Source of the DNA: an uncultured Candidatus Actinomarina sp.
GTDB taxonomy: Bacteria; Actinomycetota; Acidimicrobiia; Actinomarinales; Actinomarinaceae
NCBI GenBank assembly: GCA_902510965.1
Contig: CABXDM010000004.1
Span: forward strand, 1-45,477
DNA length: 45,477 nt
Reading direction: 5' to 3'
Positions within the stretch are counted from its first letter, which is position 1, and the number at the start of each line of letters is the position of its first letter. The position numbers and the translations under genes are program-made. The notes below the pieces were generated by a model that saw only the letters and a program-made list of their open reading frames with translations, had not been told where the DNA came from and did not search any database. Below are positions 6,768 to 14,089 of the stretch, piece by piece.

Positions 6768-7149
6768 AGCAATATTAGGCACAGGGAGAAGAAAAAGCTC
6801 TGTGGCAAGAGTAAGACTCACCGAAGGTACTGGTGAATATACCTTTAATGGCAAGACAATGGAACAATACTTCCCAAGCCCAAATATGAGAATGAGGGTA
6901 AACAAACCTTTTAATGTTGTTGAAATGGATAAGCAGTTTGACTTACACGTGACTCTAAATGGAAGTGGATTGTCTGCACAAGCTGATGCGGTTGCCTTAG
7001 GAATTTCTAGAGCTTTAATACAATTTAATCCAGAGCTAAGAGCAAAACTCAAAAAAGCAGGGTTACTCACAAGAGACTCCAGAAAAGTTGAGAGAAAGAA
7101 ATACGGACTTAAGAAAGCTAGAAGAGCCGAGCAGTTCACTAAAAGATAA
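6760..7149 (+). CDS. rpsI: 30S ribosomal protein S9 (probable ATG start at 6760)
   Basis: GTGRRKSSVARV, GLLTRDSRKVERKKYGLKKARRAEQFTKR. Confidence 0.98.
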   Translation: MSEAILGTGRRKSSVARVRLTEGTGEYTFNGKTMEQYFPSPNMRMRVNKPFNVVEMDKQFDLHVTLNGSGLSAQADAVALGISRALIQFNPELRAKLKKAGLLTRDSRKVERKKYGLKKARRAEQFTKR

Positions 7150-7156
7150 TCTCTCA

Positions 7157-8461
7157 TTGAAAAAACATTTTGGTACCGATGGCATTAGGGGTATCCCTGA
7201 AGAATCCCTTACCGAAGAAATAGTCTCAAAAGTTAGTGCTTCTGTCGAAAAAATATTAAAGCCTAAATCAATAGCTTTGATTACTGACACTCGGAGTTCT
7301 TGTGAAGTAATTGCTAAGTGGATAAGTAATGGTTTTAGCAGTGAAGTACATATTCTCAACTATGGAATTCTACCATCGGGATCAATGCCCATACTACTTA
7401 ATGAGCTCAATCATGATATGGGAATTATCATTTCTGCTTCGCACAATCCAAGTGAATACAATGGAATAAAGTTGATTGATAAAAATGGATCTAAATTGGC
7501 AGATGAAGTTGAAATTTCAATCGAAGATACAATGGATACGATTGGATTACCAAGTAAATCTTCTCAAATAGAGGATTCGCACTTAGGTTATGAGCAGTAT
7601 AAAAACTTTCTTGACTCAATAAATGACGTAGATTTCTTACAGTTCAATTTAGTAATTGACTCAGCTAATGGTTCTGCTTACAAGGTGATAAAAGATTTAG
7701 TTTTAGATCAAAATGCTACTGCAACTTTTATTGCAAATGAACCAAATGGTGAAAATATAAATGAATATTCTGGTGCAACAAATACCAAGAATCTTATAAA
7801 TACTATGAAAAATGGGCAACTAGGTATCTCTTTTGATGGCGATGCAGATAGATTAATTATGATTGATGAAAATAAAGAAGTTGCTAATGGGGACGTCATC
7901 ATCGCGTTACTAGCTAATTATCTTTCAGAAACTAAACAATTAGAAAATCAAAGTGTTGTTAGTACAGTTATGTCCAACTATGGATTTAAAGTAGCTATGA
8001 AAAATAAAAATTTTAATTTGATTGAAACTCCTGTAGGTGATAAATATGTAGCGGAGTCTATGAAGAAGCATGATGCAGTTCTTGGAGGAGAGCAGTCTGG
8101 GCATATTATTTTTTCTAAATATTTACCAGTAGGAGATGGATTAGTAACTTTTCTTCTTACCTTGAAGGCACTCAATTATTTCAAAACAACGCTTGCAGAA
8201 TTTAGAAAACAAAATATTCAAGAATATCCACAAAAATTAGTAAACATAAAGTTACAAAATCAGCTAAATAAAGAAGAGCTTGAGTTCATTAATCAGATTG
8301 CATTTGCTCTGTCCAATAAGAGAGACTTGGATGGTAGATATCTTATAAGAAACTCTGGGACGGAACCTTTGTTAAGAGTTTTAGTTGAAGCTAAAAATAG
8401 TGATGAAATGGATGCTTTTCTTGATGAGTTACTTATTAAAATTAATGGCTACCTCAATTAA
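7157..8461 (+). CDS. glmM: Phosphoglucosamine mutase (probable TTG start at 7157, not 7088)
   Basis: FGTDGIRG, ISASHNP (catalytic Ser), FDGDADR, GGEQSGH, SGTEPLLRV. Confidence 0.95.
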   Translation: MKKHFGTDGIRGIPEESLTEEIVSKVSASVEKILKPKSIALITDTRSSCEVIAKWISNGFSSEVHILNYGILPSGSMPILLNELNHDMGIIISASHNPSEYNGIKLIDKNGSKLADEVEISIEDTMDTIGLPSKSSQIEDSHLGYEQYKNFLDSINDVDFLQFNLVIDSANGSAYKVIKDLVLDQNATATFIANEPNGENINEYSGATNTKNLINTMKNGQLGISFDGDADRLIMIDENKEVANGDVIIALLANYLSETKQLENQSVVSTVMSNYGFKVAMKNKNFNLIETPVGDKYVAESMKKHDAVLGGEQSGHIIFSKYLPVGDGLVTFLLTLKALNYFKTTLAEFRKQNIQEYPQKLVNIKLQNQLNKEELEFINQIAFALSNKRDLDGRYLIRNSGTEPLLRVLVEAKNSDEMDAFLDELLIKINGYLN

Positions 8462-8472
8462 AATATCTTCGT

Positions 8473-8478
8473 TATAAT
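8473..8478 (+). promoter_or_regulatory. Putative -10 box of the glmS leader promoter (predicted TSS about 8485)
   Basis: Perfect TATAAT 6 nt before A8485; no recognisable -35. Confidence 0.5.
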
Positions 8479-8497
8479 TATATTAACGAGCAAATAT

Positions 8498-8629
8498 AGC
8501 GCCAGACCTTGAAAAAGGTGACGAGGAAGTGTGTTATCGAAAATTCGGCGGATGCATACTCGGCTCTACAGTCGTAATAAATTGTTTAAAAACAGAGAGA
8601 AATCTTTGAACAGAAGCAATTTAACGTAG
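8498..8629 (+). ncRNA. glmS ribozyme (GlcN6P-activated self-cleaving riboswitch), cleavage predicted between A8498 and G8499
   Basis: Conserved core AGCGCCAG..GACGAGG..TTATCGAAAATTCGGCGGATG. Helices traced by hand: P1 ACCTT/AAGGT with GAAA loop (8506-8519), P2 AGTGTGT/GCATACT (8528-8534 with 8554-8560), P3 CGGCT/AGTCG, P3.1 pseudoknot CTAC (8566-8569)/GTAG (8626-8629), P4 8578-8587/8614-8623, P4.1 CAGAGA-GAAA-TCTTTG. Lies directly upstream of glmS. Confidence 0.97.
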
Positions 8630-8659
8630 TCTAATTTCAACTTGCTCGTTGGAATGGAG
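8630..8659 (+). promoter_or_regulatory. Putative RBS-sequestering hairpin in front of glmS
   Basis: TCT-A-ATTTCAAC (8630-8641) pairs with GTTGGAAT-GGA (8648-8658), covering most of the SD GGAG (8656-8659); its loop and 3' arm TTGCTCGTT are complementary to AACGAGCAA (8485-8493). Confidence 0.6.
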
Positions 8660-8664
8660 ATAAT

Positions 8665-10461
8665 ATGTGTGGCATTATTGGGTATTCGGGCCCTAAGCAA
8701 CCTTTACCTATTTTATTGGAAGGACTATCTAGATTAGAATATCGTGGCTATGATTCAGCCGGTATTGCAATAACAGATGGCCCAAATCTAACTATCGAAA
8801 AAAAAGAAGGTAAATTACAAGTTTTAAAAGACCATTTACTTAATAAAGAAATTAATGGGAATATTGGAATTGGTCACACTCGATGGGCAACACATGGTGT
8901 TCCAAGTGATGAAAATGCTCACCCCCATTATGATCGCAATAAAGATTTTGCAATAATACATAACGGTATAATCGAAAATTATGCCGAAATGAAAGAAGAA
9001 CTACAAAGTGATGATTATCAATTTGAATCTGAAACAGATACAGAAGTTGTAGCAGTTGAATTGAGTAAGCAATGGACAGGTAATCTTTTGGAAACCGTCT
9101 GTAAGGTAGCTAAAGAACTTGATGGAACTTATGCACTTGTAGTTACCACAACAAAGCAGTCTGACACTATAGTCGCAGGGAGAATGATGAGCCCATTAGT
9201 TCTTGGGGTGGGAGAGGGAGAAGTCTTTCTTGCTTCAGACTCAGCAGCAATACTTGAGCACACAAATAAGATGATCTTCCTAGAGAATGGAGATTTTGTT
9301 GAGATTAAAGATGGCAGTTATCAATTATTTGACATCAACATGAATAAAATATCAAGAGAAGTTCAAGAGATTGATTGGGAAGTCTCTGAAGCAGAAAAAT
9401 CAGGCCATGACCATTTCATGTACAAAGAAATACTTGAACAAGCAGAAGTAATTGAAAGGACAATAACTGGACGTTTAGAGATTGGGTCAGAGGAAATCCC
9501 TGTCGACTTAAATAAGGCCAAACAATTTGAAAAAATATGGATTGTTGCGTGCGGTACTGCTTACCATGCTGGATTATTCGGTAAGGATTTGTTTGAAAAA
9601 GTCTTAGGAGTTCCAGTTAGTGTAGAACTTGCATCAGAATTTCGATATCGGGAACCTATAGTTGGTGAAAATGATTTAGGTATCGTTATTTCTCAATCTG
9701 GAGAAACAATGGATACCATTGCAGCAACAGAACTCCTTAAAGAGAACAATGCTCATGTTCTCGCTCTAGTAAACGTTGTCGGTAGCTCTCTTGCTAGGAT
9801 GGCTGACAGTGTGTTATATCTTCATGTAGGGCCAGAAATCGGTGTAGCCTCAACAAAAGCGTATTTAGGAATGCTTGTTGGGCAACTTCTTTTAGCTAAG
9901 CACTGGGATGAATCTGAGAATCTTGAAACAACTTTTGATGAGATTAAACAGTTACCTTTTTTGATCAAAGAAACTTTGAAATGTGAATCTCAAATTAAAG
10001 AAATATCAAAATCAATTAATGAGAAGAAAGATATTTATTTTATTGGTAGGGGATTGGACTATGCATTAGCAGCAGAAGGCGCATTAAAATTAAAAGAAAT
10101 ATCCTATCTACATGCAGAAGCTCTTGCGGCTGGTGAACTTAAACATGGCACCTTAGCTTTGATAGAGAATGGCACACCAGTAATTGTTACTGCCAGTCAA
10201 CATCACCTTCTTGATAAGACAACAAGTAATGTTCAGGAGGTCAAAGCAAGAGGAGCATATGTAATTGCAATAGGAGACAACTCATCAAAGAAATTGCAAG
10301 ATATTTCTAATGATTACGTCACTCTTCCAGAAGCAAGTGAAATGTTATCAACAATTGTGTCAATTATTCCACTTCAATTCATTGCATATCATGTTGCAAA
10401 TTTGAACGGTGAGTCTATTGATCAACCTCGTAACTTAGCTAAATCAGTAACGGTGGAGTAG
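8665..10461 (+). CDS. glmS: Glutamine--fructose-6-phosphate aminotransferase
   Basis: MCGIIG (N-terminal nucleophile Cys), RLEYRGYDSAG, GHTRWATHG, SQSGET, C-terminal PRNLAKSVTVE. Confidence 0.99.
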   Translation: MCGIIGYSGPKQPLPILLEGLSRLEYRGYDSAGIAITDGPNLTIEKKEGKLQVLKDHLLNKEINGNIGIGHTRWATHGVPSDENAHPHYDRNKDFAIIHNGIIENYAEMKEELQSDDYQFESETDTEVVAVELSKQWTGNLLETVCKVAKELDGTYALVVTTTKQSDTIVAGRMMSPLVLGVGEGEVFLASDSAAILEHTNKMIFLENGDFVEIKDGSYQLFDINMNKISREVQEIDWEVSEAEKSGHDHFMYKEILEQAEVIERTITGRLEIGSEEIPVDLNKAKQFEKIWIVACGTAYHAGLFGKDLFEKVLGVPVSVELASEFRYREPIVGENDLGIVISQSGETMDTIAATELLKENNAHVLALVNVVGSSLARMADSVLYLHVGPEIGVASTKAYLGMLVGQLLLAKHWDESENLETTFDEIKQLPFLIKETLKCESQIKEISKSINEKKDIYFIGRGLDYALAAEGALKLKEISYLHAEALAAGELKHGTLALIENGTPVIVTASQHHLLDKTTSNVQEVKARGAYVIAIGDNSSKKLQDISNDYVTLPEASEMLSTIVSIIPLQFIAYHVANLNGESIDQPRNLAKSVTVE

Positions 10462-10469
10462 ATTAATTT

Positions 10470-11558
10470 ATGGATAGAGGATACATTTATGTCAATAAAA
10501 ATAATTTTCGACATAATATTGACTATTTGAACAACCTCACGGATAGAGAACTTTGTATTGTTGTTAAGGCTAATGCATATGGTCACGGTATAGATTGGAC
10601 TGTCAATACAGCTATAGATTCAGGAGTAGTATGGTTTGCTGTCGCAACAATAGACGAAGCCATTTTAGTCAGAAGTATTTCAGACGATATTAGAATTCTG
10701 CTACTTTCAGAACCAGCTGTTTCAGAATTAGAAAAATTAGCCATTCACAATATTGACACAACTGTATACAACGAAACCTTTATTGAGGCTTTAGGTGAGT
10801 CACAGCACTCATTCAATGTACACCTTAAAATTGATACTGGCATGCATAGAGTTGGGTGCAGCCCAGATAAATTTGATATGTTATATGAAAAAATTTCATC
10901 TTTCAACAATTTAGCTCTAGAGGGTATCTGTACACATTTCCCTGTTGCAGATACGGATGAGAGACAAACGAATCACTCCGTGAAAATATTTAAGGAGACA
11001 ATCTCAGCTGTTGATATAGAAAACCTTTTAATACATGCCGATAACTCAGCATCTACTACTTACAATAATGAAAAGATTTTTAATATGACAAGGGTTGGAT
11101 TAGCTGCTTATGGGCACAGTATATCTCCTGTTAGTATTGCTAGTGAATTAAAACCAGTAATGGAAATAAAAACTCGAATATCAAATATCCAAATCAGAAA
11201 AAAAGGAGAATCTGTTTCATACGGTAAAGCACTCATTCTAGAAAAAGATGCTTTAATTGCTACTGCTCCGATTGGGTATGGAGATGGATATCCTTGGAAC
11301 TCTTTTCCGGACGGGAAGGTAATAGTCAATAACAAGTTTTGTAGGTTGATAGGTAGGGTCACAATGGATCAAATTCTATTTGACATAACAGGAATGGAAG
11401 TAGAAATTAATGACGAGGTAACTATTTTAGGAGTATCGCTTGATAGCAGCATTGAGATTTCTATTAAAGATATTGCAGAATGGAATAACACCATTGAGTG
11501 GGAAATACTTACCAATATTAAAGACAATCGATTAAATCGAGTTGAAATTGAGAACTAA
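10470..11558 (+). CDS. alr: Alanine racemase
   Basis: VVKANAYGHG (PLP Lys), HLKIDTGMHRVG, IGYGDG, GRVTMDQ. Confidence 0.97.
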   Translation: MDRGYIYVNKNNFRHNIDYLNNLTDRELCIVVKANAYGHGIDWTVNTAIDSGVVWFAVATIDEAILVRSISDDIRILLLSEPAVSELEKLAIHNIDTTVYNETFIEALGESQHSFNVHLKIDTGMHRVGCSPDKFDMLYEKISSFNNLALEGICTHFPVADTDERQTNHSVKIFKETISAVDIENLLIHADNSASTTYNNEKIFNMTRVGLAAYGHSISPVSIASELKPVMEIKTRISNIQIRKKGESVSYGKALILEKDALIATAPIGYGDGYPWNSFPDGKVIVNNKFCRLIGRVTMDQILFDITGMEVEINDEVTILGVSLDSSIEISIKDIAEWNNTIEWEILTNIKDNRLNRVEIEN

Positions 11559-11952
11559 AGAGTTAAAACAAGATGATTTAAAAAAATTTGCTGAACAGTT
11601 TATTTTAGACTTAGCAGTCCCCTCAGTACTTGGACTAAAAGGAAATCTGGGTAGTGGCAAAACTACTCTGGTAAAGAGCTTTATTCGTGCATTGGGAGTT
11701 GAGGAAAAAGTTACGTCACCAACATTCAATATTGTTAGAACTTATAAAAAAGAAGAGTTGACTATTTATCATGTGGACCTTTATAGATTATCTTCCATAC
11801 ATGAATTTTATGATTTAGACTTGCCTCTAAATGAGGAGGATACATTATTTTTTATTGAGTGGTCTGATATGATTCCGGAATCAAAATCTACAGAGTGGAG
11901 ATTTTTAGATATAGAGATTGTTGATGAGATAACAAGGAAAGTAAGATATTAA
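11542..11952 (+). CDS. tsaE: t6A biosynthesis ATPase TsaE
   Basis: GNLGSGKTT, VTSPTF, HVDLYRL, IEW. Confidence 0.96.
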   Translation: MKLRTKELKQDDLKKFAEQFILDLAVPSVLGLKGNLGSGKTTLVKSFIRALGVEEKVTSPTFNIVRTYKKEELTIYHVDLYRLSSIHEFYDLDLPLNEEDTLFFIEWSDMIPESKSTEWRFLDIEIVDEITRKVRY

Positions 11953-11954
11953 AT

Positions 11955-12659
11955 ATGTATAAATTATCAATCTCTACCTCAGGTTCTTTTATTTCTGCTT
12001 GTCTTCACGAAGAGAAGTTAGTTGGGAGCTTAATATTTCAATCTGATCAAGGATCTACCAATTTGTTGCTAAATGAAGTAGATGAGTTATTAGTAAAAAC
12101 AAATGTAGACAAGAGAGATCTTGAAGCAATATATTTAGATACAGGACCTGGTTATTACACTGGACTCAGAATAGGTTATTCAGTGGCTCAAGGCATTGGA
12201 GGAACACTTGGAATTCCATTAGTCCCAGTAAATGGCCTTGATTCACTAGCATTTTCGGCTCATACAAGCCATAGAAAGATTTGCGCCATAGTAGACATTA
12301 AAAGGAATGAATTTGCATTCTGCACCTATAAACCGGTTCCTGGTGGGGTAGTCAGAGAAACTGAGCCCGAAATTTTAGACACTGAAACTCTAAAACTAAA
12401 ATTTGCTGAGGATGTTGAAAAAAAACTTTTAGTTGGTAACTGGGACTTAATTTCTGAAAATGATTTACCAAATGATAGCAATACAAAATTAGCTGATCCA
12501 AAGATTGTAACCGCAGAGACAATCCACGCAGTAGGCGAAAGAATATTTCAAAATAATAAGTATCCGAACTTCAATGAAATCCCTATTAACTATATGCGTG
12601 AGCCAGATATTTCACTTTCACAGACATCACTTGAAAAAAAGGTTGAGTTTAATGATTGA
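11955..12659 (+). CDS. tsaB: t6A biosynthesis protein TsaB
   Basis: GPGYYTGLRIG motif; position in the tsaE-tsaB-rimI-tsaD cluster. Confidence 0.93.
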   Translation: MYKLSISTSGSFISACLHEEKLVGSLIFQSDQGSTNLLLNEVDELLVKTNVDKRDLEAIYLDTGPGYYTGLRIGYSVAQGIGGTLGIPLVPVNGLDSLAFSAHTSHRKICAIVDIKRNEFAFCTYKPVPGGVVRETEPEILDTETLKLKFAEDVEKKLLVGNWDLISENDLPNDSNTKLADPKIVTAETIHAVGERIFQNNKYPNFNEIPINYMREPDISLSQTSLEKKVEFND

Positions 12660-13095
12660 GAATGTATCTTTATGTGATTTAAAAATGTCAAAAGAGCTTG
12701 AAGAAATAGAAAATGAGATATTCACTACAGCCTGGCCAAGTGAGACCATAAAGCAAAAAATTAATAATAAAGAATTTCAGTATTGGGTATATAAAAAAAA
12801 TGACAAGTTGGTTGCTTATTTAGGAGTTCAGTTTATTAATGACTTTATAGAGATACTAGGTATTGGGGTAATTGAAGAATACAGAATGAATGGAATTGCT
12901 GGAGAACTTATGAATGAGCTTTTAGACTTTTTTAAAAAGTCTTCTTATCTAAAAATAATATTAGAAGTACGTGAATCAAATGACACAGCAAAAAACTTAT
13001 ATACAAAATTGGGTTTTAACAAAATATCCAAAAGAAAAAATTATTATAAAAACGAGGATGCTGATATTTATTTAAAGGAAAAGGTCTATGTATAA
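12652..13095 (+). CDS. rimI: Ribosomal-protein N-acetyltransferase RimI (GNAT; probable ATG start at 12652)
   Basis: YRMNGIA, LEVRESN..AKNLYTKLGF..RKNYY..EDA. Confidence 0.92.
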   Translation: MIENVSLCDLKMSKELEEIENEIFTTAWPSETIKQKINNKEFQYWVYKKNDKLVAYLGVQFINDFIEILGIGVIEEYRMNGIAGELMNELLDFFKKSSYLKIILEVRESNDTAKNLYTKLGFNKISKRKNYYKNEDADIYLKEKVYV

Positions 13096-14089
13096 AGATA
13101 AAGTTATCTTAGGTTTTGAAACAAGTTGTGATGAAACGGCTATTGCGATTATGAAAGATAGCAAACTACTAGTCAATAAAATATCTTCACAGGTAGACAT
13201 ACATGAAAAATTTGGGGGAGTTGTTCCAGAAGTTGCATCTCGAGCTCATTCAGAAATGATACGCAACTTATTTCACACATCACTCAACGAAGCACAGTTA
13301 GAACTTTCAGATATTGATATTGTTGCTTCTACAGATGGCCCAGGACTAGTAGGTAGTCTTGTTGTTGGCTACAATTTTGCAAAATCAGTTGCGTGGTCTT
13401 TAGATAAGCTATTTTTACCGGTAGATCACATGGTGGGGCATTTAAGTGCTCCGTTGATAGAATACCCACAACTAGAACCGCCATTTCTTTCTTTACTAGT
13501 TTCCGGTGGGCATACACAAATTGTTTTAGTTGAAGAGTGGGGAAAGTATGAACTTTTAGGAACCACTATAGATGACGCTGCGGGAGAGGCTTTTGACAAA
13601 CTTTCAAGATATTGTGGATTTGGCTTTCCAGGAGGACCTGCAATACAAAAGATAAGTGAGGGTGGAGATGAATCAAAGGTACCCCTTCCAAGACCAAAAC
13701 CTTCAGGGGAGTTTGATTATTCTTTTTCTGGTCTTAAAACAGCAGCTGTTTATTACCTTCAGGACTTGAAAAAAGAGGATGAGGTTTCAAGGAAAGATTT
13801 TGCTGCTTCATATCAAGAAGCTATAGTTGACTCTTTAATGGGAGTATTTAAAAAAGCTGTAAGAGAAACAAAAGTACCAACAATATCTGGTGGTGGTGGA
13901 GTAATGGCAAACAAAAGGTTAAGAGAAAAATTAAGTACTTTTGCTGAAGAAGAGAGTAAAAATATATATATTCCATCACCAGCACTATCTACTGATAATG
14001 CAGCAATGATATGTAGTGCAGCACAAATGAATTTAACTACGAAAGACCTTAACATCAATGATGTAAGGCTTTCTTCCATAATTAATTGA
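13088..14089 (+). CDS. tsaD: tRNA N6-adenosine threonylcarbamoyltransferase
   Basis: ETSCDET, GGVVPEVASRAH, HMVGH, VSGGHT, DDAAGEAFDK, TDNAAMI. Confidence 0.98.
   Translation: MYKDKVILGFETSCDETAIAIMKDSKLLVNKISSQVDIHEKFGGVVPEVASRAHSEMIRNLFHTSLNEAQLELSDIDIVASTDGPGLVGSLVVGYNFAKSVAWSLDKLFLPVDHMVGHLSAPLIEYPQLEPPFLSLLVSGGHTQIVLVEEWGKYELLGTTIDDAAGEAFDKLSRYCGFGFPGGPAIQKISEGGDESKVPLPRPKPSGEFDYSFSGLKTAAVYYLQDLKKEDEVSRKDFAASYQEAIVDSLMGVFKKAVRETKVPTISGGGGVMANKRLREKLSTFAEEESKNIYIPSPALSTDNAAMICSAAQMNLTTKDLNINDVRLSSIIN

Follow-up and report, generated by a model that had tools for sequence, protein, structure and literature searches.

A conserved leader/linker helix of the glmS ribozyme in Candidatus Actinomarina and its possible part in cleavage-triggered translational control

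RESULTS

The glmS ribozyme and the segments that flank it

The DNA considered here is contig CABXDM010000004.1 of an uncultured Candidatus Actinomarina sp. (class Acidimicrobiia), and by the window we mean this whole stretch of 45 477 nucleotides (nt). Its glmS gene is preceded by a glmS ribozyme, and our subject is the pair of short segments on either side of the ribozyme that might connect self-cleavage with translation. The ribozyme lies within the 5′ untranslated region of glmS (open reading frame (ORF) 8665–10461), and is the sole match to an Rfam family within the window and single copy in the genome; the gathering score of its family, RF00234, is 37. The core strands A/GCGCC, GACGAGG and CGGCGGAUG are all present, and are invariant across 35 distinct sequences of the genus, to which an alignment of 43 loci was reduced. 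The site of cleavage, which we take to be A8498/G8499, is assigned from established knowledge of the ribozyme family. The element is retained in 31 of 35 genus genomes; it belongs to the glmS ribozyme family and presumably shares its chemistry, with glucosamine-6-phosphate (GlcN6P) as cofactor and negative feedback as the result. The features of the region are listed below, where H0 is the leader/linker helix and SD the Shine–Dalgarno sequence.

8473–8478, + strand: −10 box TATAAT, with a predicted transcription start at about A8485
8485–8493, + strand: 5′ strand of H0, in the leader, AACGAGCAA; most of the predicted 5′ cleavage fragment of ~14 nt (8485–8498)
8487–8633, + strand: glmS ribozyme, Rfam RF00234, 93.6 bits, model positions 1–167, E = 1.4e-20; last paired position 8623
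8498–8499, + strand: predicted self-cleavage site A/G, from alignment to the Rfam consensus A/GCGCC
8630–8641, + strand: hairpin 5′ arm (anti-SD strand), from folding and genus substitutions
8642–8650, + strand: 3′ strand of H0, TTGCTCGTT; the hairpin loop (8642–8647) together with 3 nt at the start of the hairpin 3′ arm
8648–8658, + strand: hairpin 3′ arm, running into the SD, from folding; hairpin energy between −7.7 and −12.1 kcal/mol over 21 distinct variants of the genus
8656–8659, + strand: SD GGAG, 5 nt before the ATG at 8665; invariant in the genus alignment
8665–10461, + strand: glmS; NF001484 770.6 bits, TIGR01135 759.7 bits

A helix between leader and linker

Direct reading confirms that AACGAGCAA (8485–8493) and TTGCTCGTT (8642–8650) are exact reverse complements, as a first-pass annotation of this DNA had stated, and that the linker strand lies outside the ribozyme, beyond the last position paired in the Rfam model. 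By our own arithmetic the expectation for an exact 9-nt complement is ~0.002, for a 14-nt leader and a 41-nt linker (198 placements) with the base composition of the window. None of 40 foreign linkers outscored the window's own when set against its leader.

The annotation had made its proposal depend on conservation of this complementarity in relatives, and we find it both conserved and covarying. Among the 35 distinct genus sequences 93.7% of the H0 cells are paired, and six of the nine pairs are invariant, seven being fully kept. A change of A-U to G-U is seen in two sequences, and a compensatory change of A-U to U-A, involving both strands, has occurred in L079 and L087; the pair concerned is unpaired in three sequences. 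The outermost pair is kept in only 18 of the 35. From these losses the length of H0 is 7–9 base pairs (bp), depending on species. The spacer sequence flanking the H0 strand is freely variable. The 16-nt block GCTCGTTGGAATGGAG, which includes the 3′ strand of H0, is invariant save for a single G-to-T change in one of the 35 (L077), a conservation equal to that of the catalytic core.

The leader sequence AACGAG (8485–8490) echoes the core strand GACGAG (8520–8525), and the linker CUCGUU (8645–8650) could alternatively pair with the core through six pairs, one of them G-U. Since the linker is able to mispair in this way, H0 may protect the ribozyme from the misfold. In some high-GC relatives, for example L030 and L014, the leaders are likewise core-like, or else SD-like.

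The start of the transcript

The TATAAT at 8473–8478 reads as the first-pass annotation gave it. All 45 of 45 genus loci carry a −10 box, TATAAT in 32 and TATACT in 13, which is separated from the helix strand by 6 nt in 43 loci and 5 nt in two; the spacer and the sequence further upstream vary. No −35 box was found for the TATAAT at 8473, and the site is absent from the list produced by a consensus promoter scan, so that the promoter call relies on conservation of the −10 box. The scan gave one weak site only, TTAAAA-17-TAAAAT at 8436–8464 (one site, against 2.1 expected from shuffles). Because the −10 box is held at fixed spacing in every locus, the transcript probably starts at the helix, at about 8485, and the 5′ cleavage fragment would then be as short (~14 nt) as had been suggested.

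Contigs assembled from RNA libraries run from the upstream gene glmM through glmS (X1, 7110–10501; X8, 8264–10152), and two others (X2 and X4) break inside the ribozyme at 8561/8567–8571. None ends at 8485 or 8499, assembled contigs showing neither transcript ends nor strand and possibly including DNA. The break at 8561–8571 occurs in two RNA-library runs of one study and falls in the P2a loop; it is probably strain variation, not an RNA end.

H0 in the class Acidimicrobiia and beyond

How widespread is this helix? The window's genus has low-GC genomes of ~1 Mb; the rest of the class has high-GC genomes of 1.5–5.2 Mb. In 42 class ribozymes the best ungapped leader/linker helix has 4–14 bp (7–14 bp in 39 of them), with the 5′ strand, measured from the cleavage site, mostly at −22 to −8 and a sequence that differs between families. 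We scored 41 leaders against 41 linkers, excluding L072 with its 198-nt linker both here and from the two-strand SD model described below; L074–L076, L080 and L081 were left out wherever the core or the start codon was not located. The mean score was 19.5 for a leader with its own linker and 15.0 with foreign ones (z = 9.1, a difference reached by none of 20 000 permutations). Own exceeded foreign for three window choices in the scoring, and the mean z was above zero in all eight families outside the genus. Because the class sequences are mutually related these statistics overstate independence, and the consistency between families is the sounder statement. On the other side, the own linker is the top partner for only 8 of 41 leaders, and L016, L038 and L046 are among those with no signal above background in the leader–linker matrix.

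A broader survey retained 64 of 120 pattern matches, these having a glmS start within 110–520 nt and at least 60 nt upstream, with the linker taken crudely as +125 to the start codon; the other 56 were dropped as spurious (e.g. in Burkholderia and Streptomyces) or truncated. Leaders for which no more than 5% of swapped linkers matched the own linker numbered 8/49 in Bacillota, 0/5 in Chloroflexota, 1/2 in Acidobacteriota and 2/8 in named Acidimicrobiia/Actinomycetota, and the Bacilli are mostly without such a helix. Judged by complementarity, H0 is not universal among glmS ribozymes, and outside the class it is sporadic.

Several individual sequences of the survey deserve mention. L149, L117, L094, L124 and L138 (Clostridia and other Bacillota) have leader/linker helices of 11–13 bp that beat their swapped controls, and a clamp of this kind is thus not confined to Acidimicrobiia. 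The Acidobacteriota L107 and L191 carry GCGTGCG/CGCACGC, near the helix of L050, a member of class family f2. In L131 and L136 (Chloroflexia) and in L184, L114 and L208 (Bacillota) a pyrimidine-rich leader next to the cleavage site complements the SD itself, one example being a 9-bp match that ends 7 nt ahead of the start codon. Such leaders may follow the opposite logic, in which cleavage would free the SD, or may be chance matches in sequence of purine/pyrimidine bias.

Could H0 itself be a coincidence? Strands of no more than 9 nt in an AT-rich genome could match by chance in intergenic DNA. Set against this are the low expectation calculated above, the retention of the helix, one compensatory change included, throughout the 35 distinct congeners, and the presence of an equivalent helix of other sequence in eight other families, with a score that no permutation reached. 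Coincidence seems to us scarcely credible, and we regard H0 as a well-supported structure that is very probably real.

The Shine–Dalgarno hairpin

The second element is a hairpin of 8630–8641 with 8648–8658. Its 11 pairs, including two G-U, with A8633 bulged, can be drawn as the first-pass annotation claimed, and the GGAG at 8656–8659 stands where it was placed, ahead of the ATG at 8665. Helix 8634–8641/8648–8655 plus a lower stem is present in every fold, and in all folds the predicted helix takes in the SD or the start codon. The lower-stem register preferred by RNAfold pairs U8632 with A8658, C8631 with G8659 and U8630 with A8660, and adds CGUA (8625–8628) with UAUG (8664–8667); in the window this register bulges GG and buries the AUG, not GGA.

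Across the genus 98.4% of the hairpin cells are paired, six being unpaired. Seventeen substitutions in the 5′ arm preserve pairing, all of them one-sided (e.g. C-G to U-G in 13 sequences), and in one subclade an unbroken stem of 13 bp extends over GGAGA (−12.1 kcal/mol). The arm sequence ATTT(C/T)AAC is near-invariant. Taken together, H0, the hairpin and the SD account fully for the GCTCGTTGGAATGGAG block; without the hairpin, GGAAT and the ATTT(C/T)AAC arm would be left unexplained. An intrinsic terminator was considered for this region and rejected, there being no U-run and no terminator found by a scan of 8200–8800.

A possible switch operated by cleavage

The two elements share sequence, and the first-pass annotation had proposed that cleavage exchanges one for the other. 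In the form that we favour, a GlcN6P-dependent glmS ribozyme would carry an added output module of three parts. The primary transcript would begin at about 8485, and its first 9 nt would pair with 8642–8650 as H0, closing the whole ribozyme and taking up the loop and the top three pairs of a hairpin (8630–8658) that would otherwise cover the SD or the start codon. H0 would form first during transcription, leaving a weakly structured ribosome site, with glmS ON. Upon cleavage at A8498/G8499, triggered by GlcN6P, the leader would become an untethered fragment of ~14 nt and depart, the full hairpin would close, and translation of glmS would fall (OFF); the ribosome-free mRNA would then be exposed to RNase E. 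In this scheme we infer where transcription starts, that cleavage takes place, that the fragment is released and that translation responds.

Probabilities for H0 and the hairpin were taken from folds in which the Rfam ribozyme helices were enforced. Unconstrained minimum free energy (MFE) folds were set aside as non-native, since no pseudoknots are modelled and the core GCGCC becomes paired with the coding sequence. With native helices enforced, the predicted probability of H0 is 0.91–0.94 for transcripts ending at 8650–8660, where the SD arm is still incomplete. In cleaved RNA the hairpin has a probability of 0.97–0.99 and the AUG is unpaired with a probability of 0.02–0.19. In 21 genus variants the median free energies are −12.8 kcal/mol for H0, −9.3 kcal/mol for the hairpin and −3.8 kcal/mol for the stem that remains when the H0 strand is taken (range −1.2 to −5.9 kcal/mol); the fall from −9.3 to −3.8 means that H0 would strip ~6 kcal/mol of sequestering structure. 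In trans, the hairpin is predicted to outcompete the 14-nt fragment. The version of the mechanism that fits these models is kinetic, with an ON state formed co-transcriptionally and made irreversible by cleavage.

Coupling to the Shine–Dalgarno sequence in sister families

The competition is most clearly drawn in other families of the class. In f10, f12 and f25 the linker hairpin is of the type GUCUCCC...GGGAGAC, its 3′ arm being the SD, and the leader is itself SD-like and pairs with the 5′ (anti-SD) arm; the predicted competition is strict. We asked more generally whether the leader footprint on the linker has at least three expected bp with the SD window after removal of the leader. By this measure 23 of the 42 ribozymes of the class have their leader footprint on the anti-SD arm (f10 6/6, f12 5/5, f25 2/2, f15 4/5, f23 1/1, f2 5/15, f5 0/6 and f34 0/1), with a mean of 3.36 expected bp compared with 2.14 for the footprints of foreign leaders. 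The analysed window scores zero by construction, its footprint being on the SD side. Further measures give a weaker signal: an increase of SD access exceeding 0.1 is seen in 14/42 ribozymes when the strand is blocked, and in 14/41 in the two-strand model. On these predictions H0 is general in the class, and SD coupling is common, not universal. The proposed logic of leader, anti-SD and SD fares unevenly: the competition is unambiguous in sister families, and weaker in the genus from which the window comes.

Ribonucleases of the genus

In Bacillus subtilis the 5′-OH product of cleaved glmS mRNA is degraded by RNase J1, according to the relevant passages of PMC3997798 and PMC10907184. In the window's genus RNase J (TIGR00649) was not found above cut-off in two profile searches, of 31 and of 36 genomes that are 60–94% complete. 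These include genomes of 90–94% completeness and one in a single contig. Across the class RNase J exceeds the cut-off in 112 of 151 genomes, all 112 lying outside the genus, where nearly every genome has it. Because the genus genomes are incomplete we describe RNase J as not found rather than absent, yet the rest of the class differs sharply from the genus. The best genus match (G136:C8:7772-9133) scores 367.5 bits over profile positions 1–423 and has an in-frame TAG; G136 is one of the small number of genus members lacking a glmS ribozyme match. Of 31 genus genomes, 24 carry RNase E/G; the 5′ sensor of RNase E is not known to favour a 5′-OH end.

The decay mechanism to which the first-pass annotation referred stands as established for Bacillus, and probably cannot run in this genus because RNase J is not found. 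A ribozyme that is conserved although the nuclease known to carry out its effect is not found must act through some other output; the one additional conserved structure available for this is H0 together with the hairpin. With no RNase J found, this module would be the main or the only route from cleavage to repression in the genus. We discarded a role of H0 as an RNase III site, a helix of 9 bp being too short for that enzyme.

Does H0 open the ribosome-binding site?

A number of results weigh against the proposed switch. The unconstrained MFE folds contain the hairpin in both cleaved and uncleaved RNA, with H0 unformed. Even with native helices enforced, full-length uncleaved RNA at equilibrium has H0 with a probability of 0.08–0.24 and is mostly in the hairpin form, and the two structures when forced are nearly isoenergetic (−51.4 kcal/mol with H0, −52.9 kcal/mol with the hairpin). 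The hairpin is not itself exceptional: its region alone has a z of −0.87, with 39 of 200 shuffles folding as well, and no double compensatory change occurs in it among the genus sequences. L079 and L087 have lost the lower stem through a change of CT to AA in the 5′ arm, and their GGAG is predicted to be ~0.7 unpaired even when cleaved. Contigs that bridge glmM and the ribozyme make possible read-through transcripts with a long 5′ fragment. In the class as a whole, SD access falls by more than 0.1 in 3/41 ribozymes in the two-strand model, and f5 (0/6) and many f2 members show either no coupling or a negative one, so that H0 may have another primary role. Finally, RNase J does occur in those families where the switch is clearest, and the module is therefore not simply a replacement for it; it looks ancestral to the class and retained in the genus.

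In the genus the overlap of H0 with the hairpin consists of the 6-nt loop and three pairs only, and in the nested model blocking 8642–8650 alone lifts SD-to-AUG access by at least 0.2 for just 2 of 31 genus variants. For the window, SD access goes from 0.25 to no more than 0.32 in the two-strand model, a gain that 3 of 12 foreign leaders equal. When the block is lengthened to 11 nt, so that it covers two G-U pairs lying upstream of the probable start, access rises from 0.25 to 0.56. Since the three tests disagree (0.25 to 0.56, 0.25 to 0.32 and no change), we draw no single answer from them. By our estimate from A-form geometry, moreover, the 3 nt at 8639–8641 could just cross the deep groove of a 9-bp helix, a distance of ~16 Å. 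An H-type pseudoknot holding both H0 and the residual stem could then form, and the description of H0 and hairpin as mutually exclusive is too strong for the genus: the loop and three pairs are indeed shared, but a residual stem is kept in the nested model and a pseudoknot is sterically possible.

If H0 and the lower 8–10 hairpin pairs did coexist in uncleaved RNA, the SD would be similarly occluded before and after cleavage, whose effect might instead be to split glmS from a stabilising upstream part (a glmM co-transcript, or the triphosphate end). A junction of 0 nt between H0 and the 3′ arm, the reachable groove crossing, the stability remaining in the residual stem, the failure to find a terminator after glmM and the RNA-library contigs that bridge glmM and glmS would all suit such an arrangement. 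Yet H0 would still cost the hairpin ~6 kcal/mol, a loss that should affect initiation, crossing the groove with 3 nt would be strained, the conserved −10 box favours a dedicated start at the helix, and contigs cannot show transcripts or their ends. We judge the pseudoknotted state to be an improbable account of the uncleaved RNA.

The main rival to control by strand release is that H0 is a structural clamp, insulator or 5′-end cap and switches nothing, the SD hairpin being constitutive and repression passing through some other nuclease route. The helix would close the ribozyme domain, prevent mispairing between the linker, rich in pyrimidines, and the catalytic strand, rich in purines, and bury the 5′-triphosphate against decay that depends on the 5′ end. 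Much is in keeping with this. H0 occurs class-wide even where its 3′ strand is 50–78 nt from the start codon, or where no SD contact is predicted (f5, and much of f2); the predicted start places the 5′-terminal nucleotide within H0; the echo of the core in the leader offers CUCGUU just such a mispairing; and nested folding keeps the SD paired whether 8642–8650 is occupied or free. A clamp or cap alone, however, leaves unexplained both the preference of the footprint for the anti-SD arm in 23 of the 42 ribozymes and the near-invariance of the 16-nt GCTCGTTGGAATGGAG and of ATTT(C/T)AAC. Nor does it put another output of cleavage at hand, with RNase J not found and 5′-OH ends not known to be favoured by the 5′ sensor of RNase E. 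We consider it rather unlikely, though a serious contender.

On balance, a cleavage-triggered translational OFF switch in this genus is plausible on the present folding models, and the case could fall either way. More tentatively still, and with somewhat less confidence than that, the whole class may possess a new type of translational riboswitch, in which the leader would be a cleavable anti-sequestrator (in many families an SD mimic that pairs with the anti-SD strand) and its loss an irreversible lock. The genus, marine and streamlined, would on that account have lost RNase J and retained the module as sole output, silencing glmS while sparing alr-tsaEBD-rimI.

Neighbouring genes

The source assembly is 810 kb in size and 67% complete. 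The genes adjoining glmS are these:

7088–8461, + strand: glmM (phosphoglucosamine mutase); best NCBIfam match TIGR01455, 350 bits, under the curated cut-off of 447.55
10470–14089, + strand: alr, tsaE, tsaB, rimI and tsaD, closely packed; gene families by profile match

The glmM-like ORF (7088–8461) encodes a divergent GlmM, and 23 nt separate its end from the leader and predicted glmS transcription start; the scan of 8200–8800 revealed no terminator-like site between glmM and the ribozyme. Downstream, the gap from the glmS stop to the alr start is 8 nt, and profile matches bear out the gene names alr-tsaE-tsaB-rimI-tsaD given earlier. As listed, the tsaB ORF (11955–12659) and the rimI ORF (12574–13095) share 86 nt. 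Since the match to the rimI family starts only at residue 40, the true start of rimI is probably further downstream. Repression that silences glmS and leaves these downstream genes untouched would follow from the proposed mechanism, and is to be read as conditional upon it.

DISCUSSION

The glmS ribozyme is the textbook example of a metabolite-sensing RNA that lacks an expression platform. A conserved and covarying helix that ties the cleaved leader to the ribosome site would add a second output, independent of RNase J. Such an output would explain how selection could go on maintaining the ribozyme in marine bacteria of very high abundance for which no RNase J was found, and it bears on ideas for drug design that presume RNase J-dependent killing. 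If true, it would also be a natural counterpart, of opposite sign, to the engineered ribozyme switches of the ribosome-binding site (RBS) used in synthetic biology.

How does the arrangement compare with known systems? The glmS ribozyme of B. subtilis, with decay by RNase J1, was reportedly described by Winkler in 2004 and by Collins in 2007. The element discussed here is like it in belonging to the same Rfam family, in its place before glmS and in its predicted cleavage site. In B. subtilis the output is the action of RNase J1 on the 5′-OH product, whereas in the present element leader and linker pair in a conserved helix, an SD hairpin is added, the leader has only ~14 nt and RNase J is not found in the genus. 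In the broad survey 41 of 49 Bacillota ribozymes have no leader/linker helix better than swapped controls. We have found no published description, in the full-text literature, of a leader/linker helix or SD-sequestering platform for glmS ribozymes, in agreement with the first-pass annotation, though alignment figures and supplements that we did not examine might show one. By comparison with the literature found, the ribozyme is a known one and its output module is a new variant.

In translational riboswitches, such as the thiamine pyrophosphate (TPP) riboswitch of thiM and that of lysC, sequestrator and anti-sequestrator helices gate the SD. Platforms that sequester the SD are described for translational riboswitches in parts of PMC3997798. 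The likeness is that alternative pairings free or hide the SD and AUG, the untranslated mRNA then decaying. Such riboswitches are reversible and driven by binding of a ligand to an aptamer, while the change here would be irreversible, brought about by cutting off the anti-sequestrator.

Metabolite-controlled processing also decides whether there is a functional RBS in Clostridioides difficile, where a riboswitch for cyclic di-GMP (c-di-GMP-II) acts with a group I ribozyme. There the choice of splice site builds or destroys the RBS, in place of the release of a competing strand, and both the ribozyme class and the ligand are different.

The nearest parallels to strand release are engineered. 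Cleavage of hammerhead switches can release a short strand and change access to the RBS in vivo, as described in PMC3664830, which speaks for the feasibility of the proposed mechanism. Hammerhead and twister aptazymes constructed as RBS switches in E. coli work in the same manner, self-cleavage releasing a strand and altering access to the RBS. This host is naturally without RNase J. The engineered aptazymes are artificial and of opposite sign, a stem masking the RBS until cleavage frees it; in the glmS leader of Candidatus Actinomarina the device would be natural, and cleavage would mask the RBS.

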